64,000 bases of DNA from Candidatus Latescibacterota bacterium (lineage in GTDB: Bacteria; Latescibacterota; CBDEFO01), in assembly GCA_965237525.1 (NCBI GenBank), contig CBDEFO010000004.1:96001-160000 (forward strand), read 5' to 3'. Below the pieces are notes generated by a model, which ran no database searches, was not told where the DNA came from, and was given only the letters and a program-made list of their open reading frames with translations. How positions within the stretch are numbered: position 1 is the stretch's first letter; each line of letters begins with the position of its first letter. Made by a program: the position numbers and the translations under genes. Below are positions 31,168 to 63,490 of the stretch, piece by piece.

Positions 31168-31744
31168 GAGTCCGTAACTTTCTGTAAATTTGGCTGAATC
31201 AAAAAAGGTCATCGCCTAACCGAGGGCAGGATGATATATTTAGGAAGCAAGTGGTATTTACATTCATCCTTTACCTTGGAGGGAACGATGACCTGCAGTA
31301 AAGATACTCTATCTTTGGAGAATAAGCAAGCTTCATTGTTGGTCCCCGATTGAATCTATCGGGCAGGAAGATTTCTTGAAACAAATCGTCAGCAGTTTTT
31401 GCCAGAATTTCTTGGAACGAGAGATCACAGCTTTTCTCAAAGCAGAACTCTATGCCAGAGTAGAAGATCGTAGAGGCTATCGCAATCGCTACAAGCCCCG
31501 AACCCTAAAGACTCGTGTGAGTCGTCTACAGTTAAATGTACCGCAGGATCGACTGGGACAGTTCCACACAGAGTTATTTAGTCGTTATCAACGCAATGAG
31601 AAGGCGTTGGTGTTAGCCTTGCAGGAGTCATATCTACAAGGAGTCTCTACCCGCAAGGTGGAAAAGGTCACCCAAAAGCTCTGCGGGACCAACTTCTTCA
31701 AGTCCTTAGTGTCAAAGTTGTGTGAGGACCTGGATGACCAGATC
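31168..31744 (+). mobile_element. IS256-family remnant: left end plus 5' third of the transposase
   Basis: YRNRYKPRTLKTRV..VPQDR..LFSRYQR..GVSTRKV; ATG at 31288; interrupted at 31345 and truncated at 31744 by micro-palindromes. Confidence 0.85.
31345..31363. repeat. Micro-palindrome insertion
   Basis: CCCGATTGAATCTATCGGG; removing 16 nt restores the transposase frame. Confidence 0.85.
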
Positions 31745-31767
31745 CCCGATTGAATCTATCGGGGATC
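31741..31767. repeat. Micro-palindrome at a deletion junction
   Basis: GATCCCCGATTGAATCTATCGGGGATC. Confidence 0.85.
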
Positions 31768-31846
31768 CATCTGTCTCCATCCGATATAGACAGACTCCAC
31801 TGGCAAGGCTCCCTTGGAAGATACAAAATGAAATGGTGGATGTCAA
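31765..31846 (-). pseudogene. Promoter fused to a T9SS/FlgD-like C-terminal tail remnant
   Basis: TTGACA-17-TATCTT (as at 45648) followed directly by SLASGVCLYRMETDG (compare 46915-46960). Confidence 0.6.
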
Positions 31847-32211
31847 TGAGGAACTGTGCAAGATAATCTCAGTTCAACTGTGCAGCGGATTGCCCAATCC
31901 GAAACCACTGCACATTTCGGCTCTTTTCTCTCATTGCACTTTCAAGCTCTGCTTTAGCTGTAATCCTTGATGGAAGTCCCTGAGCATAAACAAAGAACCT
32001 GAAATTCTGTCTGAGAATCTGCAGACTATCAGATACTGGAGGTATTGACAAACAGAGAGGAAAAGATTATATTCTCAAATGCCATCGTAGGAATGCTATC
32101 CCCTAACACGACGATCTCCGGCTTCGGCCTTTGGCCTTCGGCGAACCCGCTACGCGGATTTGGAAATCGCGGGGCCGATATGCGAAATAGCAATATATTG
32201 AGGGTAGATCC

Positions 32212-33300
32212 ATGGGAGAAATACGGGGCACAAAACCGGGCATTATCCGCTCAGATCGGCCATTGATCGACTGCGACATCCACAATGAGCTGCCCTCCCT
32301 GAAAACGCTCGTTCCGTACCTGCCGGACCACTGGTGCGACTACATCAACACCTCTGGCTTTATGGGTCCTGATGCAAACGACTATCCGAGGGGAGTGCCG
32401 ACCTCAGCTCGACCCGATACTGCACCGCCTTCGGGTGATCCTCCGGGGTCGGACCTTGCAATGCTGCGTGAGCAGGTGCTGGAAGCCTGGGAAGTAGATT
32501 ACGGCATCCTTACCTGCGCTTATCGAGTGCAGAGTGTACACAATGAAGACCTTGCGGCGGCACTGGCCTCTGCGTTGAACACCTGGCAGATCGAGGAGTG
32601 GCTGGAGCCGGAGCCACGGTTGCGAGCCTCACTCGTTGTACCGAGTCAGAATCCGAAGCTGGCAGCTCACGAAATCGAGCGTCTTGGAGACCATCCGGGA
32701 TTTGTCCAGGTGATGCTGCCGGTACGCTCTCAGGCTCCTTATGGGAATCGGCGCTATGACCCGATCTACGAAGTCGCCGTGCACCACGACCTTGTGATTG
32801 GAATCCATTTTGGTGGAGCTCCCGGTCATCCCCCTACGCCGGCTGGTTGGCCTTCGACTTATCTGGAGGAATACGCCGGTATGGCACAAGTTTTCCAGTC
32901 GCAGGTCATAAGCCTGGTCGTGGAAGGCGTTTTTGACCGGTTTCCGACCCTGAGGGTGGCGCTTATCGAAGGGGGCTTTACCTGGATGCCGTCGCTAATG
33001 TGGCGACTTGATAAGGAGTGGAAAGGGCTCCGAAGTGATACACCGTGGGTCAAACGGCCCCCATCAGAGTATATTCGTGAGCATATCCGTTTGACGATTC
33101 AGCCAGTTGATGAGCCTTCGGATCCCAAGCATCTGCTTCAGATTATTGACCAGCTCGATTCAGAGGAACTTCTGATGTTTTCAACGGACTACCCACACTG
33201 GCACTTTGATATCCCCGAGGAGGCTTTTCCGGTAGCGCTACCGGAGAGGCTTGCACATAAGATTCTGTCCGAAAATGCCCGTGCATTTTACCGGCTTTGA
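32212..33300 (+). CDS. Amidohydrolase_2-fold protein (AibH1-like subunit)
   Basis: IDCDIH, IGIHFGG, IEGGF and STDYPHWH motifs. Confidence 0.85.
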   Translation: MGEIRGTKPGIIRSDRPLIDCDIHNELPSLKTLVPYLPDHWCDYINTSGFMGPDANDYPRGVPTSARPDTAPPSGDPPGSDLAMLREQVLEAWEVDYGILTCAYRVQSVHNEDLAAALASALNTWQIEEWLEPEPRLRASLVVPSQNPKLAAHEIERLGDHPGFVQVMLPVRSQAPYGNRRYDPIYEVAVHHDLVIGIHFGGAPGHPPTPAGWPSTYLEEYAGMAQVFQSQVISLVVEGVFDRFPTLRVALIEGGFTWMPSLMWRLDKEWKGLRSDTPWVKRPPSEYIREHIRLTIQPVDEPSDPKHLLQIIDQLDSEELLMFSTDYPHWHFDIPEEAFPVALPERLAHKILSENARAFYRL

Positions 33301-35064: not shown

Positions 35065-35095
35065 CCAATCCCTGATAGAATCAATCGGGGATTGG
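35065..35095. repeat. Micro-palindrome (two substitutions, extended stem)
   Basis: CCAATCCCTGATAGAATCAATCGGGGATTGG. Confidence 0.75.
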
Positions 35096-38640: not shown

Positions 38641-38679
38641 AGGCCGCCTTTAGCGGTATAGAAAAAAGTTTCGATTGTG

Positions 38680-44460: not shown

Positions 44461-45214
44461 ATGCCAGATGAACAGGCGAAACAGGGCCTGACCACACGTA
44501 TCGCCGTGATTGCGCCGAGTGATGGCATCAATGACGACGAATACAACAACTATCTTCCAGAGGGCGGGGATGTCACACTGCTCTGGACGCGCTACGAAAC
44601 CTTGGCCTACGACAAACCAATTAGCGTGGGTATGGTCGCATCATACGGCGACCTGAATGCAATAGCGCATTCAGCACAGATGATGCGCATCACGCGCCCA
44701 CATGTGTCTATCTACTGCTGCAACTCGTGCAGTTTTGTCCACGGCCCGACGGGTGACCAGAACCATCCGAAACACCATCGCTGAAGCTACAGGCGGAGGT
44801 GCCACTAGCGTTACGAACGCCCAGGTCGAAGCTCTTCGAACGTTGGATGTAAAGCGTGTCGCTGTTGCAGCGCCCTACAGAGCGGAGGTGACCGCCAAGC
44901 TCGTTGAATACCTGGAGCAATCCGACTTTCAAGTTACGCAAAGCCGCTCGAAGGCATTCATCAGCGAGTGGCAGATTGGCAACTCACCATCTTCGGTCTG
45001 GTTCGACCTTGCCAAGCAGGCCGACAGTCGGGAAGCAGAAGCAGTCGTGCTCGCATGCAGTGGCATCCGCACCAGCGATATCATCGAGAGGTTTGAAGCC
45101 GAACAAGCGAAACCACTCATCTCTGCTCCTGCTGTTGTCATGTGGCATGCTTTGAGACTCGCGGGTATCAATACTCAATTCGATGGCAGAGGGGTACTCT
45201 TTGCAGAATATTGA
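44461..45214 (+). pseudogene. Maleate isomerase / Asp-Glu racemase (EutA-like), frameshifted near 44760
   Basis: YCCNSCSF, VAVAAPY and LACSG across two frames. Confidence 0.8.
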
Positions 45215-45647
45215 CTCATCGAGGTCTTGAAAGGAACCTGGGAGCCGGGTCAGACGGATCGCGAATCACCAAAAGAGGGATCGGGGGACGAATATGCACC
45301 AGTATCGATATAGGAAAAGGTACAATTGAATGATATACGAGATTATTACTTCCTATCAGCTAAGGGTTTTCACTCGTGTTTCGTGTTGTTCCCTAACTCT
45401 TTATTGTATTTATGGTTATAACTGATCACCTTTTACGGTGTTTCTTTGTTTTTCACGGTGCTTTGGCTTGTTCCAGTAGAAATTTAGTAGAAGTTTGGTA
45501 GAAAAGTAAAGGACAACATTGCCCAGGGCTATTCAGTGTTCCCAGAAGCGCTGTTGAGTAGGAGTGAAGCAACGTATCGAGGCCAATCAGGACTCGCGCA
45601 CCCCCGGACTGAGAACTGGAAACTCCGTGGCAACTACCAATCCTCTA

Positions 45648-45676
45648 TTGACATCCACTGTCTGATTTTGTATCTT
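45648..45676 (+). promoter_or_regulatory. Sigma70-like promoter upstream of the FG-GAP gene
   Basis: TTGACA-17-TATCTT; a homologous copy lies at 31818-31846 (minus). Confidence 0.6.
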
Positions 45677-45861
45677 ACCACCAAATTGATCTGCACTTTT
45701 GTATCTTTCCTCCTGATTGACCAACACTACCGATTACGAATACCAACGCCAAGATTGCAGAACTGTGACAGAAGATGTCACAATCGGGTCTTATTATTAC
45801 TCTAGGTAGTGACGAAGGAGCCCCTACAACAACTCTGGCTGTATAGAAAGGAGGCCTATCA

Positions 45862-47216: not shown

Positions 47217-47222
47217 ACTTAA

Positions 47223-48741: not shown

Positions 48742-48830
48742 TTAAATAAAGTAAAATACAGGGATCTCTCTTAAAAGTAAATAACAAAATACAAAACCCA
48801 ACAAAACATACTATACGAGGAGATGTGAAC

Positions 48831-50397
48831 ATGACTGCACGCAAAAAGGATCGGCGCGTATTATTCAATGATGACGGATGGATAATGGGCGCATATGGAC
48901 CTCCCCTGACCGTAGACCAAATGAGGGACAATATGATCGCACCTTACGAAGGGACACCGGTGGACACCTTTCTCTGGTCGATAGGAGGCCACGAGGTCTA
49001 CGACTACGAGACCGAAGTTGGAGAACTGTTCGGCGAAGGTTATGAAGACCTCGGCGCTGGACAAAAGAGGAAGTATGAAAACCTTCGGCACATGATAAAA
49101 GAGAACGGGGGGCCAGTAACGGTCATTGCCGACTTGTGCCGCGAGGCGGGACTGAGCTTCTTTCCCTCAGTGAGGATGAACGAACACTACGACATGGAGG
49201 AGTCAGCTCCTAACTACGGCCGGCTCAGAAGAGAACACCCGGAATTACTCATCGGCCGTACCGGAGAGGAGATACCGGACGGGAGCCTCGAATGGGGCAT
49301 CAGGACGGGTCTTAACTACGCGTTCCCGGAGGTGCGAGCTCACATGACCAAGATCATCTTCGAGCTGTTCGAGCGTTTCGACGTGGACGGTATAGAGCTG
49401 GACTTCATGCGCCATCCGGCCTTCTTCAGGGTTGAAGAGGCATACGCCAACCGTTACCTGATGACGGACATGATAGATCACATACGCCAGAGGATTAACA
49501 AGGTCGGCGCCGAGAGGGGAAAGAAACTCGAACTGGCGGCGAGGGTCCCACCGACACTGGCCGACTCTAAGAGGATAGGACTCGATGCCGAAGCATGGAT
49601 CAAAGAAGGGCTCATAGACATACTCATCGCGGGTGGAGGGTTCATTCCGTTCGAGATGCCTATCGCAGAGTTTGTGGAGGCAGCAAAGGGAACCGATTGC
49701 CAGGTCCTGTGGCTGCTTCGAGGCGCTCAGGCCGTTTGTGGATGAGGAATTGCTCAGGGCTGCAGCCGCTCGCTACTGGCGAGCAGGTGTCGATGGAATA
49801 TATCTCTTTAACTACTTCAGTATGTCAAACGAGTGGAGACGCAGCGTCCTGGCCCAGATGGCAGACCCGGATGCGCTAGTGCTTACTGACAAGCTCTATG
49901 AACTGGACTATTCTGATAGAGACAGGCCGACTTCCCAGCTCTGGTACTCGTTCCGGAACGCAATTCCTTTCGTTCAACTGCCCGTTACCTTGGACAAAAC
50001 GCTTGCCGAGCGCGGTGCGATCCTCCGCATGGACATCGCCGACGATATGGAGACAGTCACCGCGGATGGAACATTGTTGAAATGCATTCTCGTGCTGGGA
50101 TTCGAGGACATTATGGATGGAGACGAGATAGAGGTAGGCCTCAACCAGGTATCGGTCCCATGGAAATCGGGTAAGATTCCCTCAAATGGCTGGAGTCGCC
50201 GGGAGTATGAGCGGAACCAATATCCGGCTATGCTCAAAGAGGTCGCCCTGGAAGGTGACAGCATCGAGTTCCAAATAGCCAGTCCGCCGCTTAAACAAGG
50301 GGTGAACGAGCTTGAGGTCCGCCTGGTCAAGTCCGCCTCGGAGCGTACACAGCCGGTAGTCCTTAAAGGTGTAAGATTCTCAATAACCTACAAATAG
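48831..50397 (+). pseudogene. GHL10-like glycoside hydrolase, frameshifted near 49708
   Basis: FNDDG, SVRMN, LNYAFPEVR, DGIELDFMRHP; DGIYLFNY in the second frame. Confidence 0.75.
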
Positions 50398-50869
50398 ATA
50401 ATCCCGACGTGAATCTTCTTGGACTATGCAACGCGACGAGCAGCCGGACCCAGAGAGGAGCCTTCTTTCTAATCAGCTCCGCCTTGATCGCACCCCCTCA
50501 ACCACCACTTAAGCTAGAACCTTCGGCAGGTCCTCTAACTGCTTACCATTGTGGATCTTGAGGACTTGACACCTTCCTCAAGAAGCACTTAATGCCCTGA
50601 AATTGCCTTGCTTCTGTTCCGATTCTTTTTTATAATTAGTGCACGGATAAACGACACAATTTGGAGCGTAGGAACTGGCTTCTCTGAACTACTTTTGAGA
50701 GGCTATGGCTACTATTTGGTCACCGTCGGTCAACAGTCGCATTGCAAGCTCAATAAAACTTGCATAAGGAAAGATTATCTTGTATATATAGTTTTATAAG
50801 AACGCTGCTATAGTTTACATTGCCAACAAGCCTATGGAGATAGCTCCTCCGCAGGGCAACGCCGAGAGT

Positions 50870-50911
50870 AAAAGCCGATGACTGGGTACCCCATCGAGTC
50901 GTCGGCTTTTT
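50870..50911. terminator. Intrinsic terminator-like hairpin
   Basis: AAAAGCCGATGACT...AGTCGTCGGCTTTTT. Confidence 0.6.
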
Positions 50912-50939
50912 TGTTGGCAGACGTAAAGGAGGCAAAACT

Positions 50940-51070
50940 ATGAATAAGAATTCAAAGAAGGTTGGTCGAAAGACAAAGTTAACGCCTGAGCTGCAACAGG
51001 TTCTATGTGACATCTTTAAAGATGGCAACTTCGTCAGCACAGCATGCAACGCGGTCGGAATCGGCACACC
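50940..51070 (+). pseudogene. Phage-like HTH (small terminase-like) N-terminal stub
   Basis: GGAGG RBS; GRKTKLTPELQQVLCD..GNFVSTACNAVGI; fused to integrase sequence. Confidence 0.45.
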
Positions 51071-51071
51071 G

Positions 51072-51948
51072 TTCCTACAAGAACAACATCAAGCGGCACC
51101 TTAAACCGTTCTTCGGAGAGTACGAATTAACGGCTATCACACCAGAGTATATCTAGAAGTACGTCTCCAGAAGAGGAGCAAGAAGTTGTCTCCTCAGACG
51201 ATCAAGAACACGCTGTTTCCACTCAAGGAAATGTTAAAGCACGCCGTAAGATGGGGTTATCTTCGGGAAAGTCCAGCGTTATACATAGAGACGCCCAGAG
51301 TTCCCCACTACGAAATGGATTTTATGACGGTGGAGGAAATCCATATCTTCCTGAATCACGTGGCACAGAAGTGGTATGCGCTGTTCCTCACTGCTGTTAT
51401 GACCGTCATGCGTCGAGGAGAATTATTAGCTATGAAGTGGAATAACATCGACTGGAACAGAGAGCAGTACTTCGTCAGAGAGGCGCTATACAGGAAGAGT
51501 TTAGTCGAACCGAAGTCAGCTACCTCCAGAAGGGCGATCAACCTGTCTCCTACCCTAATGGACTCCCTTAGGGCGCACCGGGCACGTCAGATACGAGGAG
51601 AAGATGAGATTTGGGCCGGCCTACCAGGACCTAGACCTGGTGTTCTGCCATGAGGATGGAACACCCCTTGATCCGGATACAGTGAGAAAGCGGGAGTTCC
51701 ACAGGTATTTGAAGGATGCGGGCATCCGGCGAATCCGGTTCCACGATCTGCGTCATACTTACGCCAGCCTGTTGCTCACCCAAAGGGAAAGTCCCAAGTA
51801 CATTCAGAGTCAGTTGGGGCACTCTTCCATCCAGATCACATTTGACCGATATGGGCATCTCATGCCGGAAGCACACAAAGAGGCAGCGGAACGGCTTGAC
51901 ACAAGGGTTTTCGGATCGTTTAGTAGAAAAATAGTAGAAATTCGGTGA
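51072..51948 (+). pseudogene. Phage-type tyrosine integrase, 5'-truncated, with a stop and a frameshift
   Basis: HLKPFFG, MRRGELLA, RFHDLRHT and LGHSSIQITFDRYGH motifs. Confidence 0.9.
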
Positions 51949-52011
51949 AAGATAAGCCGAATTAAGAAATGATTAATCCCTGTAACTGATTTAATTACAA
52001 GGATTAATAGC

Positions 52012-52087
52012 TGGAGGGCTATGCGCGATTCGAACGCGCGACCTTTGGTTCCGGAGACCAACGCTCTATCCGCTGAGCTAATAGCCC
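52012..52087 (-). tRNA. tRNA-Arg (CCG)
   Basis: Cloverleaf: GGGCTAT/ATAGCCC acceptor stem, TTGGT-CTCCGGA-ACCAA anticodon arm, TTCGAAT T-loop, encoded CCA. Confidence 0.95.
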
Positions 52088-52201
52088 CAAAAGTTGTATC
52101 TCAGTACCTTGAGTTGTTCTCCGAAAAGATAATCAACAAAACCTTGGTTGTCAAATAATTCAATAAATGTTTCTCGTTTCCTCCTCGGACGTTGAGTTAA
52201 C

Positions 52202-53407
52202 CTAAGCTCCGAACTTCATGAGTCGTCCGGCGTGGGCAAGTGCCAAGGACATAACTTCAGTTGCGGGGAAAGTTCCCAACAGACCTTTGGCGCATTCGGT
52301 CTCTGAGAATGCGGCGGTACCGTCCTTTCTGCACCATCTGCTCTTTATTGTAAAGGGCACAGGGTGCCAGCTGTGAATTTTTAACGTCGCAGGTGTGGAG
52401 TGATCGCCTGTGATCATTATAACATCTGGGTTAAGGCCAGTCGCTTCTGGGATTAGGCTGTCTATCTCCTCGATGACTTCGACCTTGCCGGAAAAATTTC
52501 CGTCTTCTCCGAAACTGTCGGTCGTTTTTACGTGGAGATAGATGAAATCGTAGCTGTTGAACGCTTTTTTCAGAGCTTCAAATTCGTCAGATATCTCGGA
52601 ACTTGTGGGTATTACTTCCATTCCGACCATGCGGGCGACGCCGAGATAGTCCGGATACGTGGCGATGGCACCACCTTTTAGACCATAAACTTCGGACATC
52701 GGCAAAAAGTGCGGCTTTGTGTCGAATCCTCTCATAAGGATCATATTCGCGGGATGCTGATCTTTGAGGGCTATTTTGGCTTTGTCTACAAAGCTGTTGA
52801 TCAGTTGGGCTGTCCGCTCTGCCTTTTTGGAGTTCGCCTGGACTTTCTTAGGGAGAAGTCCCACTTCTTGGGGGTCGGTGTCTGTAAGTTCCGGGGAGAG
52901 GCCTTCACCTTTGAAGACTATTACTGCTCTATGGTCTTTCACCGGCTCCATAACAAATCCGACGTGGGGGAATTCTATGTCCCTTAAGATCTCGCACAGA
53001 CGGGCGTTTTCACTTGTGGCTATTCTGCCTGCTCTTCTGTCTGTGACTGTTCCGCTGTCATCTACGGTGGCGAAGTTGACCCTCGCTGCGACATCGCCTT
53101 CGTCTATGCCCAGACCGACTCCCATAGCGGCGACTGCGCCCCTTCCGACCTTGTGTTTAACGGAGTCGTAGCCGAAGAGAGCAAGGTGAGCAAGACCGCT
53201 TCCAGGGGTTATTCCCCTTTCTATAGGGATAGTCATTCCGCCCTGACCTTCTTTTGCTATCTTGTCCATATTGGGAGTCTTAGCCGTCTCCAGCTCAGTC
53301 TTCCCCGTATCAGGATGCGGAAGACCTCCCAACCCGTCTATGACAAGGAGAAATATCTTGGAATCCGACGGAACGACTAAGTCTTTGACAAATTCCGAAC
53401 TGATCAT
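52202..53407 (-). CDS. apgM: 2,3-bisphosphoglycerate-independent phosphoglycerate mutase (archaeal type)
   Basis: IDGLGG, LETAKTPNMD, PGSGLAHLALFGYD, DRRAGRI and GDHSTP..HSWHPVP motifs. Confidence 0.9.
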   Translation of the reverse strand: MISSEFVKDLVVPSDSKIFLLVIDGLGGLPHPDTGKTELETAKTPNMDKIAKEGQGGMTIPIERGITPGSGLAHLALFGYDSVKHKVGRGAVAAMGVGLGIDEGDVAARVNFATVDDSGTVTDRRAGRIATSENARLCEILRDIEFPHVGFVMEPVKDHRAVIVFKGEGLSPELTDTDPQEVGLLPKKVQANSKKAERTAQLINSFVDKAKIALKDQHPANMILMRGFDTKPHFLPMSEVYGLKGGAIATYPDYLGVARMVGMEVIPTSSEISDEFEALKKAFNSYDFIYLHVKTTDSFGEDGNFSGKVEVIEEIDSLIPEATGLNPDVIMITGDHSTPATLKIHSWHPVPFTIKSRWCRKDGTAAFSETECAKGLLGTFPATEVMSLALAHAGRLMKFGA

Positions 53408-53483
53408 CTTCAGTTTCCTTGTTTACTAGCCGATTGTGTGATCTGCCCCCGATTAACCCCAAATTGAACCTATTGGGGGCGGT

Positions 53484-54119
53484 CTACATCCCAGATTTAT
53501 GCTCTGATACTGCGATTACATTGGCGATGATCTCCAGACGCTGCCGGTGCTCCGACAGGAAAGCTGCCTCCTGTGGATTTTCCACAAGCGTCATTGTGAC
53601 CAAAGACAAAGCTTGGTCAACTTTACCCCCGATCACCAACTCTAAAGACTTTCCAAAGACTCCTGCTATTTGATCAAGTCTGTTTTGTACTATCTCCAGA
53701 TTGAATTTTGCATCCTGGTCATAAGCGTTTATGTCCAGCGCCTTCTTATAGGAACCAAGGGCTTCTGTTAGCATATTTTCCTTAAAGAAGGAATTTCCTA
53801 TATTGTAGTTCTTCATAGCCTCCAAAGCCGGTTCATCGGACGGCAGAGCCTTCTGATACTCCGAGATAGCCTCCTGGCGTTTGTCCTGTTTATGGAGGAC
53901 ATCTCCTGTATTTAGATGGATGCGAGATGAAGTAGGGTCTTCTATCTGAGCGTCTCGATACCACTTTTCAGCGCCCTCGTAATCCCCCTCAAAAAATAGT
54001 CTATTTCCCTCTTCCACCTTTGCTGCGACGCTATTCAGGTCATTCAGGAAACCCGCAATAGCCATCAGCGCTGAGGCCAAAAAGAGGATGATGAATATAG
54101 CCAGATGCCTTTTTGCCAT
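53484..54119 (-). CDS. TPR protein, BatC-like
   Basis: GNRLF..Y..A and YNIGN..YKKAL..DAKFNLE. Confidence 0.75.
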   Translation of the reverse strand: MAKRHLAIFIILFLASALMAIAGFLNDLNSVAAKVEEGNRLFFEGDYEGAEKWYRDAQIEDPTSSRIHLNTGDVLHKQDKRQEAISEYQKALPSDEPALEAMKNYNIGNSFFKENMLTEALGSYKKALDINAYDQDAKFNLEIVQNRLDQIAGVFGKSLELVIGGKVDQALSLVTMTLVENPQEAAFLSEHRQRLEIIANVIAVSEHKSGM

Positions 54120-54135
54120 TATGCGCCTCATCCTC

Positions 54136-54666
54136 CTACCAGTCCTTTTCCGACCGGCTCCTTTGGATGCTCCGATCTCGGACATTCTTGGACACTTTCT
54201 CCTGATTCTCTATAAATAATTCCAAGAGTCTTGCTGCCTCCTTTTGGGCCTTTGTCATGCTTGTGTCGTCTCCACTTTCCTGGGAAATTTGTGAAGTATC
54301 CCCGATTGAATCTATCGGGGATTGACTCTGCGCGGCAAAAGACGTATCACTTTGAGCTTCCTGCTGATTCTGTACACCTGATGTATCAGCGTGAGTCTGT
54401 TGCTGCTGCTGATCTTGCTTTTGCATCTGTTCCATTACGCTCAAAAGAGCCGACGACTTTTGATGTTCTGGAGATACTCTAAGCGCCGCCTTCAAGTACT
54501 CTTTTGCCTCCTCCCATGCGGGGTCTTTGATCTGGCTCTTAGAGAATCGTGCGGCTCCCAGGTAGAAAAGCCGTTCTGCTCCCATGTCCGAACCGGTCTG
54601 TCCGAACGCTCTTACATGAAATAGAATAAGCAAAACGAAGAAAGCTTTTATAAATTCTTTTTTCAT
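54136..54666 (-). CDS. Bat-like exported protein with Q-rich linker; carries an in-frame micro-palindrome
   Basis: Signal peptide, EAARLL and C-terminal EKDW; palindrome at 54298-54322 encodes SPIDSIGD. Confidence 0.7.
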   Translation of the reverse strand: MKKEFIKAFFVLLILFHVRAFGQTGSDMGAERLFYLGAARFSKSQIKDPAWEEAKEYLKAALRVSPEHQKSSALLSVMEQMQKQDQQQQQTHADTSGVQNQQEAQSDTSFAAQSQSPIDSIGDTSQISQESGDDTSMTKAQKEAARLLELFIENQEKVSKNVRDRSIQRSRSEKDW

Positions 54667-54966
54667 TGTCCCTTATATTCAAAACGCGGACTTTCGGAAT
54701 GCTTACATAAAAAATACGATATCGACAGGATAAAATCAACCCCCAAATGAATCTATTGGGTTTCAGCCCCTGATTTTATAGGGGATCAACCTATTTGATA
54801 GGCAAGATGTCTGTGCGTATCAGATCGTAGGCTTATCGTTGATTCTAAAGATAGAGCCAACTGGGAATTTCCTTGTAAATAGTTCTTTACTTTGCAAGGA
54901 ACTGCACTTATCTTTGATATAAATTCTTCACAAAGTTTTGGGGCCTTAAAAAGGGAGACAGCAAAT

Positions 54967-55725
54967 ATGAGGACCAACCGTATCAAGGAAAAATTTAGAC
55001 GTGGACAGGCCGTAGCGGGCATAGGTTTATCTGTGCCGAATCCCATACTGGCAAACGCTCTCTCCAAGGTGGGTTTTGACTTTATGCTTTTCGATATGGA
55101 GCACTCATCCGTAGATAGAGCCGTTCTACCCTCTTTGATGATAGCCATTGAAGCCTCAGAAACAGAGGCGATAGTACGAGTTCCGTGGAACGATTTTGTG
55201 ATAGTAAAGCAGGTTCTGGACTCCGGAGTCTACAATATAATCTTCCCCATGATAAACAGCGCCGAGGAGGCCCGTCAGGCAGTTGCAGCGACCAGGTATC
55301 CGCCCGATGGGATAAGGGGCAGCGGACCCTGGCTCTCATCAGGATATGGTGCCTATACCGCCGAATATATGAAAAGATCCAACGATGAAGTCGGCGTCTT
55401 CATCCAGATAGAGCAGCAGAAGGCTGTGGACAACATGGAGGAGATTCTGTCCGTGGAGGGAGTTTATGGGACGTTCTGCGGGCCTTCCGATCTGAGTTTT
55501 TCACTTGGCAAGTTCCCCGGGGAGGCAGTTGGAGAGGTCACAGAGAGGTTCGAAAAGATCATGGAAGTGTGCCAGAAGAATAATGTAGCCTTCGGGTTGT
55601 CCACATCAGGTCCCGATGACGCTAAATCCTGGCTCAACAAAGGAGCTAAGCTTGTGACTCTCGGAGGGGACATGGGGTTTGCGCTGGACGGCGCAAGGAA
55701 GGCGTTGGACACTGTAAGAGGTTGA
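54967..55725 (+). CDS. HpcH/HpaI aldolase family protein
   Basis: FDMEHS, VRVP, YPPDGIRG, QIE and GPSDLS motifs. Confidence 0.9.
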   Translation: MRTNRIKEKFRRGQAVAGIGLSVPNPILANALSKVGFDFMLFDMEHSSVDRAVLPSLMIAIEASETEAIVRVPWNDFVIVKQVLDSGVYNIIFPMINSAEEARQAVAATRYPPDGIRGSGPWLSSGYGAYTAEYMKRSNDEVGVFIQIEQQKAVDNMEEILSVEGVYGTFCGPSDLSFSLGKFPGEAVGEVTERFEKIMEVCQKNNVAFGLSTSGPDDAKSWLNKGAKLVTLGGDMGFALDGARKALDTVRG

Positions 55726-56380
55726 ATATTGGCTCCTGCAAAAGAGAAAAGACCTGCTGTGTTTCATCAATTCTCCTTCAGTGATTCCCCCGAAAAAGTC
55801 GTAGCGGCAGAGGCTGTATTTTTCAAGGTGTTTCAACTCACAGACACTCCATCCCCCTTGTTCCCAGACCCTCTGGGAGCCGACAGACGTTTTTGTCCCC
55901 GATAGATTCAATCGGGGATTGAGCTATGTAGATATAATACCTCACAGAGGGATATCGCATCACCTGGATGTCCACAGTTCCATCTGACGGAGTCCAACAG
56001 CCTATAACCAGATCGGGGTTATATCTTTCCAGTGCCCCCTTTGCACTCATCCTCTGAATCCTTGATAGATTCAATCCGGGAATGGGAGGGGCTATGTCCT
56101 TCCAGTCTCCAGAGTCGACAGCTATGACATTGTGGCCCTCTTTGTGCATCCCTAAACTCAAAAGACCGACCCCTGCGCATACTTCTAGGACATTGTTGAC
56201 ATCCAATCGCCTTATCTGATCCGATAGAAGACGCACAAATTCCTGCGTGGGAAGGTGATATATCTCCCAATGCTCACAGTAATCGAGCCAGGAGTCTATG
56301 CCATCTACAGCCCCCGATTCACAGAGCCTGATATGCTCTAGGGCGTCTTTGTAGCTTGGAAGTTTGAGACGTGAATCCAC
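55606..56380 (-). pseudogene. SAM-dependent methyltransferase-like gene frameshifted by a 16-nt micro-palindrome insertion
   Basis: VLEVCAGVGLL motif; deleting 55901-55916 fuses ORF 55838-56380 to ORF 55606-55911. Confidence 0.75.
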
Positions 56381-57153
56381 GTTCTACGCAACGTTTCTAC
56401 GAATGGGGGACGCTTCCAGGAGGGGCCACGAGTTTCTCTAAAGTAGGTATGGATGCGCTTCGGGAGATCTTCCGGGAGCGGAGGCAGTGCGGGGAAACGC
56501 GTCCGGACCTTTTGTTCCAGAGCAGAAAGGTCGGACGGGACCATCTGGAGGATTTCTGTGAGGCATCCGGAGGCGATTTGGTTGTTGAGTCTGCAGATGC
56601 AGTCGTTGGCCCCTTCCAGGAAGTCCAGATATTTGGAGATGAGCGCCTCGACGCGGCGATTGTAGCGTGAGATTAGAGACTGCAGGCATTCGATCTGTCC
56701 GAGGACACGTCCCAGGTTCGGCCTCGAACCTGCCGTCGGCTCGGCGAAGAAGGGAGGCCAGAAGTCGAGGCCGAGGAATCTCGTGAGAGTCTGCCGATTT
56801 AGAAAGCATGCCACTAAAGGGATGCACTTCCGGCGGATTTCTTCCCCGATGTCCTTTAGGACTTTCGCCTCCCTGATCAGGAGTCCCTCAGCGTCCTGTC
56901 GCAGTTCCTCCGCTTCTTTGCGGTCCTGAAGGGGCTCAGGTAAAAGCTGGTTATCCTTGAGGAGCCTGTAGGCGATGCGGTGTTCCGGACCGCTGGCAAA
57001 ATAGTCCTCCAAGTCGAGAGGTCTTCCCCTGCCCGGGAGATCGTTGAAGTCCCCCCCGGCGATCGCGTCACGGAGAATTTCATCTATACTTCTATGCTCC
57101 GGGCGACCGTCGGACTGTAGGAATTTAGGCCTTTCTTCGGCCATAAGGATCAT
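56338..57153 (-). CDS. DUF1992 (DnaJ-associated) domain protein
   Basis: ILRDAIAGGDFNDLPGRGRPL..YRLLKDNQLLP. Confidence 0.8.
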   Translation of the reverse strand: MILMAEERPKFLQSDGRPEHRSIDEILRDAIAGGDFNDLPGRGRPLDLEDYFASGPEHRIAYRLLKDNQLLPEPLQDRKEAEELRQDAEGLLIREAKVLKDIGEEIRRKCIPLVACFLNRQTLTRFLGLDFWPPFFAEPTAGSRPNLGRVLGQIECLQSLISRYNRRVEALISKYLDFLEGANDCICRLNNQIASGCLTEILQMVPSDLSALEQKVRTRFPALPPLPEDLPKRIHTYFRETRGPSWKRPPFVETLRRTWIHVSNFQATKTP

Positions 57154-57510
57154 CTCCTGACTCTTTCCTACAGCTTACGTGTAATTATGACAAAAAATAG
57201 AGATTTGTAAAGGCGTCTATCTAAATCTCGATCTTGCGCAAACCTAAGCCCAAATAAAGGGGATCTCTCTGTTCTCCACGTTTCCCTCCTCGGCACAAGC
57301 TCCAGAGGTACAGACTTTGTACGTAGGGCTTCCTTTAAGGCGATTCAACATTAAGCCACAGTCCCGTACAGCGTGAACCTATTCTTCCGATAGATCACGG
57401 GAGCTAAGTGTTCGAGGATTGAATTTTCAAATTGGATGACAAGTGACTGTTTTACAATATAATATAACAGAACACCGTCCAGATTCACATGCAGCAGGGG
57501 ATTATCCAAT

Positions 57511-57822
57511 CTATCCGTACTTCTTGACCGCTTCCTCGATGGCTGGTACTGCCTTCATCAGGTCCTCGGGAAGCATGACCGGGATGAGTTCGACGGCGGC
57601 ATTGAAGGCAAGGAACCATGGCTCCGCTATCGCCGGCATTTGCGAAGTGTCCTGCATATCCAGGATGATATAAGCTGCCCTCTTCCCGTTCTCCGCCACG
57701 AAGTACACTGCCTCGGGCTTTAGGTCGGCGAGGATGGACTCGACAATTTCGCCCATTCGGCCTTCCTTTATTGCTGCATTGCTGGCCTCAACATCCCAGA
57801 CAGCCTTGAATAAGAAACGCAT
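57511..57822 (-). CDS. Small GYD/DUF3303-like protein
   Basis: KPEAVYF..GKR..PAIAEPWF..PVM; AGGAGG RBS. Confidence 0.7.
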   Translation of the reverse strand: MRFLFKAVWDVEASNAAIKEGRMGEIVESILADLKPEAVYFVAENGKRAAYIILDMQDTSQMPAIAEPWFLAFNAAVELIPVMLPEDLMKAVPAIEEAVKKYG

Positions 57823-57885
57823 AGAATACCTCCTTTTGAGTAAGTTGAACATATACAAGCAACAACGAAACGCTGTCAGTCTAAC

Positions 57886-59058
57886 TTAAACACTCGGTCC
57901 GATGCGGTTGATGGCAAAAGCGTTGTATTCTTTCAAGATCTCGGCTTTCGTCATTTTTCCGGAAGCGGTGTCCAACAATTCGTTATATATTCTCTCCCCC
58001 GCTTCCTCTATCGAGGTGCCTTCAGAGAAGATGTCCGACAGGTCCACTTCCATTGTGGGTTTCATCAGCTCGAAGGATTCCCTGTGACCCGTAACCCGTA
58101 TTGTGATCATCAGTGGATGATTTATAGTGTGTCCTCCTCCCGTTGAGAAGAACATAATCTGCGCGCCGCCTGCCGCTATTCCCGTGATAGATTCGCCTCC
58201 GTGACCGGGTGTATCCATAATGTAGAGCCCTGGCTCTTTCCCCGGAGTTTGGGCGTACTCGATCACATCTATGATGGGCTTTGTGCCGCTCTTTTGAATA
58301 GCTCCTATCGATTTTTCCTCGATTGTTGAAAGTCCCCCCGCGATATTATCCCCTGTGGGCTGAGATCCCCTCAGATCGACTCCGTACTCCAGTATCTTCT
58401 TTTCCATAGCCTCTACAATATCGTATATCTTCTGAGCTACTTCTTCATTTACAGCCCTTCGGGCAAGCACGTCCTCACCTCCCATCATCTCTGTGGTCTC
58501 AGCTAATATAGACCTTCCGCCCTGGTCAATCATCATATCTGAGCAGTACCCCACAGCGGGATTGGACGCAAGGCCTGATGTGGTATCCGACGTTCCGCAG
58601 TTTAATCCTAACAGTATGTTGGAGACTCTTACTTCTTCTCTCAGGTTCGACGTGATCTCGCGTTGCATATCTATTCCCAGAGATATGCATTTGGAGGTAG
58701 CCTCCACAGCGCCTCCTGAAGCCCTGATGTTGACGGCTTCGACGGGCTTTCCCGTCTTGGAGATTTCGTGTGCTATCTCCTCGGCGGTGCAGCCCTGCTC
58801 CTTGAAGTGGTCAACGACGATGACTGCGCCGGCGTTCGGATTGGCGCCGTGGCCGACCAAGGTGTCAAACGTCTGTTTCAAATCGGGCGCTATCTGACAT
58901 CTCCCCAGAGGATGGACAATAGGAATTGTATTATCGAGTATATTTGCCACACGCTCGCATAGGGTATTGGCGTATAGGGTCCCCGAAAGCATCAAAAGGT
59001 AGTTTCTTACTCCTACGGAGCTGTCCTCTCGAACATATCCCCAGAATGTGTCTCTCAT
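57886..59058 (-). CDS. UxaA-family hydro-lyase large subunit (SuyB/altronate dehydratase-like)
   Basis: VGVRN, CGTSDTTSGLASNP, NIAGGLSTIEEKS and FSTG motifs. Confidence 0.85.
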   Translation of the reverse strand: MRDTFWGYVREDSSVGVRNYLLMLSGTLYANTLCERVANILDNTIPIVHPLGRCQIAPDLKQTFDTLVGHGANPNAGAVIVVDHFKEQGCTAEEIAHEISKTGKPVEAVNIRASGGAVEATSKCISLGIDMQREITSNLREEVRVSNILLGLNCGTSDTTSGLASNPAVGYCSDMMIDQGGRSILAETTEMMGGEDVLARRAVNEEVAQKIYDIVEAMEKKILEYGVDLRGSQPTGDNIAGGLSTIEEKSIGAIQKSGTKPIIDVIEYAQTPGKEPGLYIMDTPGHGGESITGIAAGGAQIMFFSTGGGHTINHPLMITIRVTGHRESFELMKPTMEVDLSDIFSEGTSIEEAGERIYNELLDTASGKMTKAEILKEYNAFAINRIGPSV

Positions 59059-59059
59059 T

Positions 59060-59362
59060 TTACTTTTCCTTTTTTAAATCGCCGCGTCCTCTGTCGCTCT
59101 CGATGTTGTGAACGTGAACGTAGTCCCCCGCCTTGATGTCCACAGAAGCAGAGCCTATAGCCAGACCATACTTAAATACGGTCTCTCCCCTTTTTATATC
59201 CTCAAGGGCAATCTTATGACCGTAGGGGATGTCTTCTTCTGCGACAAATTCCAGATCCACGCCCTTGGCCCTGGCCTTTATCTGGTCTCCCTTCTTCACA
59301 TCACCTATCAGGGTAGCTACATTGTCCTGTTCTTGAACGATGACGTGGGCAATAGCTGGCAT
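59060..59362 (-). CDS. UxaA-family SAF-domain small subunit (SuyA-like)
   Basis: DNVAT, IPYGHKIA, KYG and VHVHN motifs. Confidence 0.9.
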   Translation of the reverse strand: MPAIAHVIVQEQDNVATLIGDVKKGDQIKARAKGVDLEFVAEEDIPYGHKIALEDIKRGETVFKYGLAIGSASVDIKAGDYVHVHNIESDRGRGDLKKEK

Positions 59363-59380
59363 AGCCTCTGTCCCTCCTTT

Positions 59381-60322
59381 TTACCTTAGAAACTTATCTC
59401 TCATACTGAAATATCTTTGCCCAGTATCTGGCAGGATCGTCACAACCCTTTTACCTTCGCCCAGCCTTTCTGCTATCTTCATCGCACCAAAGACATTTGC
59501 CCCTGACGATATTCCCATTAGTGCCCCTTCTTTCCTTGCGATCAACTCTGCAGTTTTAAAGGCGTCCTCATCGCTTACTGCTATCACCTCGTCCACCACG
59601 TCCATACCGAGCACCTCGGGTACGAAGCCTGCGCCTATGCCCTGAATATCGTGGAGTCCGGGCTTTCCGCCCGACAGAACTGCTGACTTAGCAGGTTCGA
59701 TCCCGACTATTAACACACCCTTGAGCTTTTCTTTTAGGGTCTGTCCCACGCCTGTTATAGTCCCCCCTGTACCTATTCCTGCAACGAAAGCGTCCAGTTT
59801 GCCTTCCGTTTCTGAGAGGATCTCCATCGCAGTGGTTTTCCTGTGCGCCTCGGGATTTGCGAGGTTTGTAAACTGGTGAGGCATAAAGCAATTCGAATTG
59901 TTCTCTACGATCTTCACCGCCACTTTTACCGCCCCCTTCATGTCCTCCTCTCCCGGTGTCAGGACTATCTCCGCCCCGTAAGCGGCCAAGAAATTCCTCC
60001 GCTCCATGCTCATGGTCTCTGGCATCGTCAAGATCAATCTGTAGCCCTTAACAGCCGCGACCATCGCCAGACCTATGCCCGTATTTCCGCTCGTCGGCTC
60101 GACTATGGTATAGCCCTCCTTCAATTTTCCCGATCTTTCGGCCTCCTCTATCATCGCAAGACATATCCTATCCTTTACAGAACCTCCGGGGTTCAGGTCC
60201 TCCAGTTTAGCGCATATCTCTGCCCAACCATTCTTTCTGATCCTGTCGAGACGGATCATGGGAGTTTTGCCTACTAACTCTAAGATACTCTCTTCGGCTA
60301 CTCTCAATATATCTCCTCCCAA
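59381..60322 (-). CDS. cysK: Cysteine synthase A
   Basis: NPGGSVKDR, EPTSGNTG, GTGGT, IQGIGAGF and GISSGA motifs. Confidence 0.92.
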   Translation of the reverse strand: MGGDILRVAEESILELVGKTPMIRLDRIRKNGWAEICAKLEDLNPGGSVKDRICLAMIEEAERSGKLKEGYTIVEPTSGNTGIGLAMVAAVKGYRLILTMPETMSMERRNFLAAYGAEIVLTPGEEDMKGAVKVAVKIVENNSNCFMPHQFTNLANPEAHRKTTAMEILSETEGKLDAFVAGIGTGGTITGVGQTLKEKLKGVLIVGIEPAKSAVLSGGKPGLHDIQGIGAGFVPEVLGMDVVDEVIAVSDEDAFKTAELIARKEGALMGISSGANVFGAMKIAERLGEGKRVVTILPDTGQRYFSMRDKFLR

Positions 60323-60676
60323 GCAAGCTGACAGTAGTCAGCCGACGGGGTATTCCCCCTTCCCATCCCCTGAGATTGCTTCGTCAGACAGGGCGGAGTG
60401 GGTGCTTTGCTGAGGAGGCAAGAATCCGCGAAGCGGTCTGACCCACAAGTTTCATCCTGTACAAAGCTAGTCTTGATAATGTGATTGGTAGGTCAGACAT
60501 CTTAGTCTTCCTGCTGACCCCAGGGACTTCATCGCGAGGCGGAGTGGGTGCTGCGAGCGTTGCTACCACCACTTTTTGTAGGGGCACGGAATCCCAGCAA
60601 GGCACGCAATGGCGAAGTATGCGAAGTAATCTCACGACAGTAGTCAACGGAGAGGAGATGCCCATTATGCTGTCTA

Positions 60677-61687
60677 CTATTTTGAGATAGGTATTGCCGA
60701 GTTAAGAATCGGATAATATGGCGGATCCAGCGTCTGCTCGTCGCGCCAGTTATCGAGCTGACTGACGCGTTGAACGCATCCTATCGTACAGAATTTGCTG
60801 CAGAGCTTCTTCCGGCTGTACTCCTGTTGAATATTCCAGTTGGTGTACTCCTCAAGGGGTATACCCGGATTTCCGCGCTGTTGCGAACAGTAGTGGACAA
60901 GTCCATCTTCGCATATGTAGAGATAACGTGCACCGGCGCGACATTTCCAATCCACGTGCCCGTTTTTCACAAGTTCATCTTGGAATCTATTGTTGACGAC
61001 GTACGACCAGAAGTTGTTTGGATACCTCTCTTTTATCTGTCTGTAGACCTGGCAGGCCTTCTCGGACAGTGGCTTCATGAATCCGTCTTGTTGATGAATA
61101 ATGCCTATCGAATGCGAAAAGCCATATTGAACAGCGCGCTCTGAAATCAACAAGGCATCCTCAGCACGATCGTGCAAGGCACCTAAAACGCAATTGATGT
61201 TCACTTTGAAGTCCGCATAATCGGCAAGTAACTTAAGCTTTTTGTCCAGAACTTTTAAGCTTTTGACAGAGACTTCGTCCGGCTTGGCGTTGTCGATGCT
61301 GATCTGCATATGCTGCAGGCCGGACTCGTTAAGTTCCCTGATGCGATCTTTGGTAAGTAGATAGGCATTTGTAATCACACCTGCGACCATACGATGGAAA
61401 CGGATCCTTTCGATAACCTCTGACAGCTGAGGGTGCAAAAGGGGCTCGCCACCGGTAATCGTTATAGAAGCGGTCTTCAGTTCTTTGAGCCGGTCAATAC
61501 GTGCGAATAGATCAGGAATAGGAACCGGATCCGATGTTTGATCGTATTCGTTACAATAGGTGCAGCTGAGGTTACATCTCCTTATGGCGACTATCTGGGC
61601 ATTGATAGGGTGTTTGGTAGAAATCAGTGCGCGCAACAACTGTCTTGCTTCTTCCACCGTCAGGCGCACCTTAGATAGCCATTTCAT
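60677..61687 (-). CDS. Radical SAM protein with Cys-rich C-terminal extension
   Basis: CNLSCTYC, TGGEPLL and CRAG..YCSQ..CSKFCTIGC motifs. Confidence 0.9.
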   Translation of the reverse strand: MKWLSKVRLTVEEARQLLRALISTKHPINAQIVAIRRCNLSCTYCNEYDQTSDPVPIPDLFARIDRLKELKTASITITGGEPLLHPQLSEVIERIRFHRMVAGVITNAYLLTKDRIRELNESGLQHMQISIDNAKPDEVSVKSLKVLDKKLKLLADYADFKVNINCVLGALHDRAEDALLISERAVQYGFSHSIGIIHQQDGFMKPLSEKACQVYRQIKERYPNNFWSYVVNNRFQDELVKNGHVDWKCRAGARYLYICEDGLVHYCSQQRGNPGIPLEEYTNWNIQQEYSRKKLCSKFCTIGCVQRVSQLDNWRDEQTLDPPYYPILNSAIPISK

Positions 61688-61749
61688 AGTGCCCCCCTAT
61701 ATCTATAAAGACTGTAGTAGGTAGTCTCTGCGACTTTGAGCCTTTGTCA

Positions 61750-63168
61750 TCAGACAAAGGCCTCTCCGTCTATTTCACAGTTGTTCTTTTTCCCCATCAA
61801 TTTTAAGATGGAGGGAAAAATGTCAGCTGTCCTCAATTTCGTCCTTTTTATCTTATAGTTAATCAAAAAAGGGACGTGCATATGCTCTTTATGCATAGAG
61901 CCGTGAGATGATTTATGTTCGGGACTTTCGGACTCTGCCCTCCTCAGGTCGAACCCCTTATTGGCGCTCAAGACAATGTCACCACACCTTTTCGACTTAA
62001 ATATCTGAAGGAGCTGGATCGGGGTGTCAGGGTGCTCGGTATCGAACGTGGCCTGCAATACTTCTTGGTGTGTCATCCTTTCGGGCAGAGGATCGTATCC
62101 TGAGGGGTCTTCTCCTTCGACGCTGTAGATCACGGTGTTACCTTCACTTTTGATCTTTGCCTCTCCGTTTGGACCGGTTATGCGGATCGCTTCATTTTGA
62201 TCCTTGCTGGCGATCCATGCCACTTCATCTCTTTTTACCAGATCTGTGATGAGGTCCGGCGCGATGTTCCGAATCTCATCGTGATGTGTTCTCCTTGACC
62301 ATCCGTCGCAGTTTTTCAGATAGACGTTAGCCATTCCGTTGCCCGACTCCATGACCACAGCGTCGAAGCCGTTTCTGGATATCCTTGGATAGTGAAACGT
62401 CTTTAGCCCTCTGTTTTCCACAAATTCCACCAGATCAAAATGCGTATGGGTCTCGGTCAACCCGTGATCGCTGGCAATGATAAGCAGTGTGTCCTGGAGC
62501 CTGCCTATCTTTTTTAGTGCCTCGCCTGTTCTGCCCACAGCTTCATCTATCCTTCTGTAGGAGGCGAGAACCTCCTGGGAAAACGGAGACCCGATGTGCG
62601 AAAGTCCGTCAATTGCAGGAAAGACAGCATACACAAAGTCGGGACGCCTCCCAAGGGCTATCTCCAACAAGCGAGCCGCCGTCTTGTCCACAATAGGCCA
62701 AGGGTGAGCAAAGTGTCCCAAAAGCCAAAAGAACGCCTTCAGAACGTTTACTCTTTTGCCCCAAAATCCAGCTCCCCTGCTCAGAGAGCTGAAGATGTTG
62801 ACAGAGTTATCGGCTATCTCGAAAAGGGTCGTACGATCTTTATCGATGTCCCTGTTCATAAGGTAGTTGCCAGGGCCTATGTAACTTCTGAATCTGTACA
62901 AGCTGAAAAGGCCCTGCCTGAAATATCTTTCTCTATCGAACCACCTGATCCCAGGCAAGTTGCACGAACCGGGGAAGCAACCGGTGAGAAAAGGCAGGTA
63001 TGCCGGGCCTGTGGTGGATGGAAAAGCTGTCACCGCCCGAGTATAGGTCCCATCTTCAAGTACATATTTTTGTATGTTGGGCAATTTGCCAGCAGACAGC
63101 ATCTCCTCTGTGACATCAGCCCTTGCCCCATCAGCTAAGAAGATAATACAGGAATTGAATCTTTTCAT
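61750..63168 (-). CDS. Alkaline phosphatase superfamily / nucleotide pyrophosphatase-phosphodiesterase
   Basis: ADGAR, FPSTT, DGLSH, SDHG and SHGS motifs. Confidence 0.88.
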   Translation of the reverse strand: MKRFNSCIIFLADGARADVTEEMLSAGKLPNIQKYVLEDGTYTRAVTAFPSTTGPAYLPFLTGCFPGSCNLPGIRWFDRERYFRQGLFSLYRFRSYIGPGNYLMNRDIDKDRTTLFEIADNSVNIFSSLSRGAGFWGKRVNVLKAFFWLLGHFAHPWPIVDKTAARLLEIALGRRPDFVYAVFPAIDGLSHIGSPFSQEVLASYRRIDEAVGRTGEALKKIGRLQDTLLIIASDHGLTETHTHFDLVEFVENRGLKTFHYPRISRNGFDAVVMESGNGMANVYLKNCDGWSRRTHHDEIRNIAPDLITDLVKRDEVAWIASKDQNEAIRITGPNGEAKIKSEGNTVIYSVEGEDPSGYDPLPERMTHQEVLQATFDTEHPDTPIQLLQIFKSKRCGDIVLSANKGFDLRRAESESPEHKSSHGSMHKEHMHVPFLINYKIKRTKLRTADIFPSILKLMGKKNNCEIDGEAFV

Positions 63169-63241
63169 ATTCCACTGGGTTAGTAGAGACTGAGGGTTGT
63201 AAATAGGACACCCTTCTGTCTCTACCCGCTCTCCTCTTTAG

Positions 63242-63490
63242 GCCTAATAATTAACAAAAAAAGGCCGTGTATTAATTAAGGCATTGTACTATATTATAGT
63301 TATGCCGTTTAACCACCTTCGGTGTCATTGCGAGCCGGAGGCGAAGCAATCTCCATTCTGTGGTAGATGTAATACTCTCCGGCTCTCATAGGAGATCACT
63401 ATAAAACCTTGAGATTGCTTACCCGATAGACTCAATCGGGGACCGCTTTGCTGGTCGCAATGACTCCACCAAGTTTATGAATTAATCGGG
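63242..63490 (+). mobile_element. MITE with REP doublet, copy 3, containing a micro-palindrome at 63422-63440
   Basis: TTAG on both flanks; about 20 bp longer than its sister copies. Confidence 0.85.

Follow-up and report, generated by a model that had tools for sequence, protein, structure and literature searches.

A 64,000-nucleotide (nt) stretch of the genome of a Candidatus Latescibacterota bacterium (GenBank assembly GCA_965237525.1, contig CBDEFO010000004.1, positions 96,001 to 160,000 of the forward strand; hereafter the window) carries several copies of a 23-nt hairpin, YC-CCCGATTGAATCTATCGGG-GR, that is very probably a non-autonomous replicating hairpin and likely to be one of the smallest self-spreading DNA units. 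An initial annotation, made from the letters of the window alone, had proposed a minimal mobile hairpin that inserts into genes; filled and empty alleles, together with a methyltransferase-like gene that one copy has frameshifted, bear this out, and the repeat is actively spread. Each new 23-nt copy replaces about 4 nt of its target, mostly at C^G and usually without duplication. Whole hairpins are likely copied from existing copies, because the closing pair is inherited with loop variants and 42-nt nested forms recur as units. What is new is the definition of a 23-nt haplotype unit, of how it replaces target bases and of its composite units, together with tests for strand bias, for targeting of hairpin tips and for a parent element, all of them negative.

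The repeat is genuine, abundant and patchily distributed

The window holds 8 matches to the 13-nt core of the hairpin at up to one mismatch, where shuffled sequence would give 0.13. The initial annotation had suggested counting this core genome-wide: there are 179 exact copies in the source genome (G000; 4.58 Mb, 96.6% complete), against 0.55 expected under a fifth-order Markov model. The 19-mer within the unit, allowing three mismatches, has 569 matches in G000 (three control patterns gave 0, 1 and 14), which collapse into 474 clusters with unrelated flanks. The closed genome of a congener (G001; 4.54 Mb), whose main blocks are 94-98% identical to positions 45000-64000 of the window, has 318 matches.

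The filled site at 55898 is crossed gap-free by contigs of runs X2 and X4, which come from two studies besides that of the top holder, and the IS256 transposase stretch of the window lies in one piece in an X2 contig; at the 55898 site, a contig of run X5, from a further study, is 19 letters shorter. Since assemblies of other studies carry the filled sites, the repeat is real, and the library or assembly artefact that the initial annotation had considered is refuted.

In a survey of 168 genomes of the phylum, the repeat was abundant in two, both of the same genus, and a third genome had one match. Elsewhere, among the matches listed, groundwater Deltaproteobacteria, one PVC-group and one Thermodesulfobacteriota genome and two further genomes have multiple copies of the same repeat or of a variant differing by one letter. 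Ten distant genomes were checked, each picked because it had a match among those listed; eight have 8-63 strand-hits and the other two one site each, with 0 for a reversed control. Viral contigs gave no matches for two core patterns and 2 for a tailed pattern, phage records gave chance-level matches only, plasmids had no match to the miniature inverted-repeat transposable element (MITE)-like repeat that hosts one of the window's copies, and no RNA data set was among the listed holders of the repeat.

The foot of the hairpin is part of the unit

The strand is predicted to fold into an 8-base-pair (bp) stem with a 7-nt loop (z about -3). In 398 independent copies, the foot pair at -2/+2 is T-A in 177 and C-G in 134, while -3/+3 is unpaired; 29 of the 474 copies carry a compensatory change of a G-C to an A-T pair, and in the distant carriers the foot is paired in 20 of 22 copies, including a third type, AC..GT. 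Loop variants at unrelated sites are linked to the foot pair (19:0, 15:3, 1:10, 0:8 and 7:0), and none of 5000 permutations reaches the observed value. We infer that the foot travels together with the loop, because neither post-insertion repair nor target choice would by itself produce this association.

The unit also inserts into itself. Copies lie inside older copies at three positions, and 42-nt nested forms number 35 in G000 and 16 in the 2.8 Mb of G001 over which alleles were compared. Two variants of the inner copy account for 14 of 36 nested CC..GG copies versus 4 of 100 others (p 1e-6), and the same string occurs at unrelated loci. The simplest reading would be that the composites are copied whole, a site preference of the inner variants being the alternative; if they are copied whole, it would be the hairpin foot, rather than length, that fixes the ends.

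A second class of copies has a 4-nt tail (CCTG, CTTG and kin; CYTG-type) and adds 27 nt, often without loss of target. In flank tallies, a CYTG tail accompanies a minority of copies and GTAG none. At G000:C8:739900-752700, tandem and dispersed duplications have their boundaries at 27-nt tailed units, including head-to-tail unit pairs. G000 also holds a shorter sister palindrome, CCCCGATTAAATCGGGG, with 44 matches at up to one mismatch, which is itself a target of the unit.

Filled and empty alleles reveal a replacement, mostly at C^G

Within the 2.8 Mb compared, the unit is absent from G001 at 72 of the 230 G000 copies with a matching site, and from G000 at 44 of 204 G001 copies, although best matches in such comparisons can be paralogues. 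After repeats were collapsed and paralogue pairs added, 69 events of net 17-28 nt remained, of which 14 were nested and set aside. The 55 non-nested events have net lengths of 18 (6 events), 19 (17), 20 (10), 21 (4), 22-24 (3) and 26-27 nt (15). No target-site duplication accompanies the net 18-21 events; a few of the 26-27-nt events have duplication-like flanks and resemble short duplications instead.

The cut falls at C^G in 10 of 16 clean-flank net-19 events (background 5%, p 1e-9). The initial annotation had proposed that an enzyme acting in trans writes the hairpin into targets resembling its own arm; this is supported, in that the unit favours targets similar to its foot and would need a factor in trans. 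In the same 16 events, 16 of the 32 cells at positions -2/+2 depart from the empty allele, versus about 5% further out. Across net 18-21 events, flank differences stand at about 50% for the first two bases and reach background by about base 7. At least 7 of the 16 events are overwritten on both sides, and several unique-sequence events on one. Genome-wide in G000, CTAG is strongly depleted (ratio 0.27), and CG-centred 4-mers are not.

These results revise the insert of 16 nt at TC^GGG that had been proposed. The methyltransferase-like gene is intact in G001, where it reads ATC^GTC and is 19 nt shorter, and one flanking base is overwritten in G000; the unit is 23 nt long and replaces about 4, so that the net gain is usually 19. 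Deleting 16 nt had also restored this frame, but only because 16 and 19 leave the same remainder on division by 3. No empty allele of the IS256 site was found, and IS256 homologues are distant at the N terminus; the insert there may be 16 or 19 nt. Polarity is clear where one filled copy of an insertion sequence (IS) stands against 135-138 empty copies, or where an otherwise intact gene is frameshifted: such sites record insertion, not loss.

Hosts, reading frames and strands

By loose patterns, the hosts of the 398 copies are CGTC-type repetitive extragenic palindromes (REPs) in 112, other copies of the unit in 99, heptamer repeats in 79, open reading frames (ORFs) in 62, GTAG REPs in 26 and none of these in 118, with overlap between classes. 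Only 67 of 479 copies lie inside ORFs of at least 150 amino acids, which cover 79% of the genome. Polymorphic events keep the frame in 22 of 27 cases inside ORFs versus 13 of 46 outside (p 1e-5, with one event entering twice and ORFs called mechanically), and the five frameshifting events affect IS copies and two other ORFs, one of them the methyltransferase-like gene of the window. Thus, the reading frame is under purifying selection.

There is no replichore bias (105 versus 125, p 0.21, with the origin taken from the GC skew of 2.8 Mb) and no bias in orientation to transcription (102 versus 101). Targeting of hairpin tips was considered and rejected as a general rule: of the non-nested insertions, 18 of 31 in intergenic DNA and 12 of 20 in ORFs hit a predicted loop, versus 55% and 58% of random sites. 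Local hopping was likewise dismissed, an excess at 2-10 kb being traced to one duplicated region. Rearrangement breakpoints coincided with none of 296 intergenic copies and with 1 of 1500 random sites, a comparison of low power with many unscorable sites.

Relation to known short repeats

The closest known systems appear to be small dispersed repeat (SDR) elements and REPs, and the unit works like SDRs and REP singlets. The small dispersed repeats of Nostocaceae, SDR5 among them, were reportedly described by Elhai et al. in 2008. Parts of PMC4390886, PMC5861425 and PMC2884548 describe SDR elements as mobile repeats of about 20 nt with filled and empty sites that insert into other short repeats. 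As far as the accounts in parts of PMC4390886 and PMC5861425 go, SDR5 enters HIP1 at one exact point, after base 3 and before base 4, and is not found outside Nostocaceae. Measured against these partial accounts, the 23-nt unit is likewise a repeat of about 20-27 nt scattered over the genome, relatives have empty alleles of it, and it too inserts into other short repeats. Unlike SDR5 as described, it is not strict about its C^G target and takes out about 4 nt there; it consists of one simple hairpin, gives rise to mobile composites and is present in several phyla. Heptamer repeats are one host of the unit among several.

With the GTAG REP/REPIN-RAYT system, as parts of PMC8266576 and PMC3116915 present it, the unit shares its short high-copy palindrome (20-50 nt in such systems), a mostly intergenic position, a 4-nt tail before the stem in the 27-nt form, and whole hairpins that act as replicating units. 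It differs from the same partial accounts in having no GTAG tag, in forming singlets or nested forms in place of inverted doublets, in its C^G instead of CT target, in the loss of target bases and in its random orientation, and no REPtron was found for it. Its stem, ATCCCC..GGGGAT, resembles the ATTCCC-N8-GGGAAT of the CGTC REPs and dRS3/NTS/SRM hairpins that go with Ssn GIY-YIG proteins, to judge from parts of PMC3733652 and PMC11893778, and SRM-type repeats and an Ssn gene are present in G000 alongside the unit. Compared with those portions, however, the unit has no CGTC tag or 3' tail, has a 13-nt core and flanks none of the Ssn genes examined; a DNA-pasting activity of Ssn is not shown in the relevant part of PMC11893778.

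The initial annotation had set the repeat apart from known ones on the grounds that REPs are mostly intergenic and that the coding palindromes of Rickettsia are much longer. This contrast is weakened by single short REPs inside ORFs, on record in part of PMC3733652, and by SDR elements of about 20 nt. Like the Rickettsia palindromic elements (RPEs) treated in part of PMC3733652, the unit can be kept in frame inside proteins. Unlike them, on that partial account, it is shorter than RPE-1, stays in frame only where trimmed junctions or the 27-nt form bring the insert to a multiple of 3, and also has frameshifting copies. It differs from a MITE or IS footprint in the lack of target duplication in net 18-21 events and of any parent found with the same ends. 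The literature searched, mostly in non-subscription journals, yielded no description of this hairpin family or its mechanism; further REP families in the supplements of PMC3733652 might include a relative.

Search for a cognate enzyme or parent element

Counts in G000 and G001, respectively, were 0 and 0 for Y1_Tnp, 1 and 0 for REP_Tyr_transpos, 1 and 0 for small GIY-YIG, 0 and 2 for RVT_1, 1 and 0 for IS110, 0 and 0 for each of Cas1, Ku, GxxExxY and IS91, 3 and 0 for C5 methylase, 2 (weak) and 0 for DUF559, and 0 and 1 (broken) for a four-helix bundle. No family among those tested was in both genomes except UvrC-length GIY-YIG, and no cognate RAYT, Ssn, reverse transcriptase (RT), IS110, Cas1 or parent element was found for the unit. 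The two RT genes of G001 lie outside the 2.8 Mb compared.

G000 has an intact RAYT of 176 amino acids (G000:C8:1476118-1476648, plus strand), missed by Pfam Y1_Tnp and found by NF047646. GTAG REPs lie on both sides of it and one inside the gene, with a copy of the unit within its 3' repeat; the orthologous G001 site lacks it, and only a 28-amino-acid RAYT remnant occurs in the 2.8 Mb of G001. RAYT-type genes occur in 8 of 8 distant carriers searched. G000 also has a single-domain Ssn-type GIY-YIG gene (G000:C4:479893-480114, minus strand) between inverted SRM-type hairpins (ATTCCC-N8-GGGAAT), inside a local duplication. The GTCAT-tagged hairpins of G000 are a separate 11-copy family. In one distant genome (G045), locus L217 at 1720-1900 has a tRNA-like copy that adjoins a small GIY-YIG gene and bears three different tiny palindromes, two with CTTG-type tails; L226 and L228 look alike in this.

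The route of spread

We give roughly an even chance to a nick-and-patch route. Any existing hairpin copy would serve as donor and be copied as single-stranded DNA; a hairpin-recognising enzyme acting in trans, predicted to be of RAYT or Ssn type, would make a nick; the hairpin foot would define the ends; and host repair would patch the hairpin in at a C^G step through a 1-2-nt match at the foot, replacing about 4 bases. The unit, the target rule and copying from copies are taken here from the data, the single-stranded step and the enzyme by inference.

Several points weigh against this route. Neither the G000 RAYT, with its GTAG REPs, nor the Ssn gene, with its ATTCCC-N8-GGGAAT hairpins, is tied to the unit, and RAYT and Ssn-type genes were not found in the closed G001, which has new copies of its own. 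The initial annotation had suggested looking for an enzyme gene flanked by the motif; the unit flanks 0 of 30 RAYT loci and 0 of 16 GIY-YIG loci of carriers, and the lineages concerned commonly have RAYT genes in any case. According to part of PMC8266576, HUH enzymes insert in a strand-specific manner, with cleavage at a CT that adjoins a GTAG tag, while the 23-nt unit shows no strand bias, is usually untagged and deletes target bases. Some of the alleles scored as empty may be slippage deletions. Finally, a few cases of apparent carry-over of donor flank are explained equally well by nesting and slippage, and carry-over is not claimed.

The most serious competitor, though in our view an improbable one, dispenses with a dedicated enzyme: hairpin fragments from replication or turnover would anneal at fork gaps by microhomology and be fixed by host polymerases, through oligo-like recombination or template switching, with short-homology gene conversion spreading filled alleles among repeats. 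It would account for the failure to find a mobile-element enzyme common to G000, G001 and the carriers, for junction differences that fade over about 6 nt, for the lack of orientation bias, and for identical junctions that recur in REP and heptamer repeats sharing just 7-12 nt of flank. It leaves unexplained why one sequence family, patchy across phyla, expands with ends fixed at the foot, and neither local hopping beyond the one duplicated region nor a lagging-strand bias is seen. Less probable again is an RNA template, in which a stable hairpin RNA would be copied into nicks by an RT or host polymerase, primed by the target and jumping back after the hairpin. Spread of this kind has reportedly been proposed for SDR elements. 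One-sided overwriting in several unique-sequence events would fit priming on a YC end of the target, and G001 has its two RT genes, but no RT was found in G000, for all its completeness, or in 4 of 8 distant carriers, the events overwritten on both sides do not fit, and a transcription bias is absent.

That the hairpin is the footprint or joined ends of a larger element, such as a small GIY-YIG cassette that loses its interior after insertion, seems to us decidedly unlikely. Its stem does resemble the SRM/CGTC hairpins of PMC11893778, as far as the part concerned describes them. However, in G000 and the compared 2.8 Mb of G001, no half-site pair was found to recur with a gene between its halves, among the matches listed; a metagenome scan for exact halves 271-331 nt apart gave 34 matches, with spacings of 271-324 nt, all unrelated chance pairs or ordinary repeats; and the many loop and foot haplotypes and the 42-nt composites point to copying from copies. 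The footprint put forward in the initial annotation thus loses ground for want of a parent. Least probable is a host protein-binding or regulatory palindrome under selection, or an artefact: the mostly intergenic copies would suit a host site, yet the unit disrupts the frames of genes and IS copies, inserts into itself, is polymorphic and follows no positional or strand logic, and an artefact is at odds with the contigs from other studies and the matches in closed G001.

More ambitiously, and doubtfully, the 23-mer may be the basic unit of an undescribed class of bacterial replicator without a gene of its own. Any hairpin of 23 or 42 nt that ends in a YC/GR foot would then be lifted out and inserted at C^G steps, along a route distinct from RAYT, IS110, Cas1 and RT; it would cross phyla and add peptides of 6-9 residues to working proteins.

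Copies and neighbours in the window

All copies listed in the initial annotation were recovered, with the 19-mer exact at 31345, 31745 and 54301 (plus strand) and 55898 (minus strand) and with 1-2 changes at 35071 and 63422 (minus strand). Its degenerate copies, at about 53446-53482 (a decayed nested form), 54742 and 56061, were also seen again, and a copy at 15116 had been overlooked (Table 1).

Table 1. Copies of the 23-nt unit in the window and the features that host them
Feature	Position	Strand	Remark
23-nt unit (TC-19-mer-CA)	31343..31365	+	5' end of IS256 transposase remnant; frame shifted after MTCSKDTLSLENKQASLLV
IS256 transposase remnant, host to two units	31288..31763	+	
23-nt unit (TC..GA) at end of IS256 remnant	31743..31765	+	
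23-nt unit, 2 changes, at transposase-fragment junction	35069..35091	-	common to congener G001
Decayed nested form, unit within older palindrome, intergenic	53446..53482	+	common to congener G001
23-nt unit (TC..GA), in frame in BatC-like ORF	54299..54321	+	common to congener G001
Decayed copy, 19-mer with 3 changes	54740..54762	+	common to congener G001
23-nt unit (TC..GA), frameshifts methyltransferase-like gene	55896..55918	-	empty allele ATC^GTC, net +19
Older decayed copy, in frame in same methyltransferase-like gene	56059..56081	-	common to congener G001
23-nt unit replacing CGT, net +20, in CGTC-type REP of ~270-bp repeat	63420..63442	-	
MITE-like multi-copy repeat hosting 63420 unit; filled and empty subfamilies	63231..63496	.	
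Extra copy (CC..GG subfamily, 2 changes), beyond range of initial annotation	15114..15136	-	common to congener G001

The copy at 31743 has the same right flank and a different left flank in G001. The transposase fragment adjoining the copy at 35069 is presumably of the IS3 family, a label we take from a translated motif. In the BatC-like ORF (54136-54666, minus strand; the BatC match is weak, E 1e-4), the unit is read as SPIDSIGD, so the in-frame tolerance proposed for this gene holds; no empty allele of this copy was seen. The copy at 63420 had been called a later insertion, and CGT indeed stands in its place in the sister repeats at 11282 and 21241 and in the G001 orthologue. This copy is one of a filled subfamily of 37 in its host repeat, however, and is therefore probably a passenger or conversion product rather than a fresh event.

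This MITE-like repeat of about 270 bp has two CGTC-type REPs and about 50 or more copies, and carries units at two of its sites, in subfamilies of 37 and 12 copies. A DDE transposase (DUF772 and DDE_Tnp_1) lies at 47276-48676 on the minus strand; an IS with about 140 copies tops the G000 list of 13-mers and is probably this element. At 51186-52087, a tyrosine recombinase fragment adjoins a tRNA gene, possibly an old integration site. Three DHDPS-family genes lie in a row at 22506-26405 (minus strand), and two of them, of 308 amino acids, resemble a recent duplication. An Rfam scan of the window found tRNA only.

Significance

How bacterial repeats of 20-30 nt (REP singlets, SDRs and short RPEs) spread is an open question. 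Although its host organism is uncultured, this family offers dozens of filled and empty pairs, a defined unit, a target rule and heritable haplotypes, and it gives the candidate enzymes, RAYT and Ssn, a known substrate and target. An activity that pastes hairpins of 23-42 nt would serve as a tool. For the genomes that carry it, the hairpin steadily supplies small in-frame insertions to proteins and also inactivates genes.

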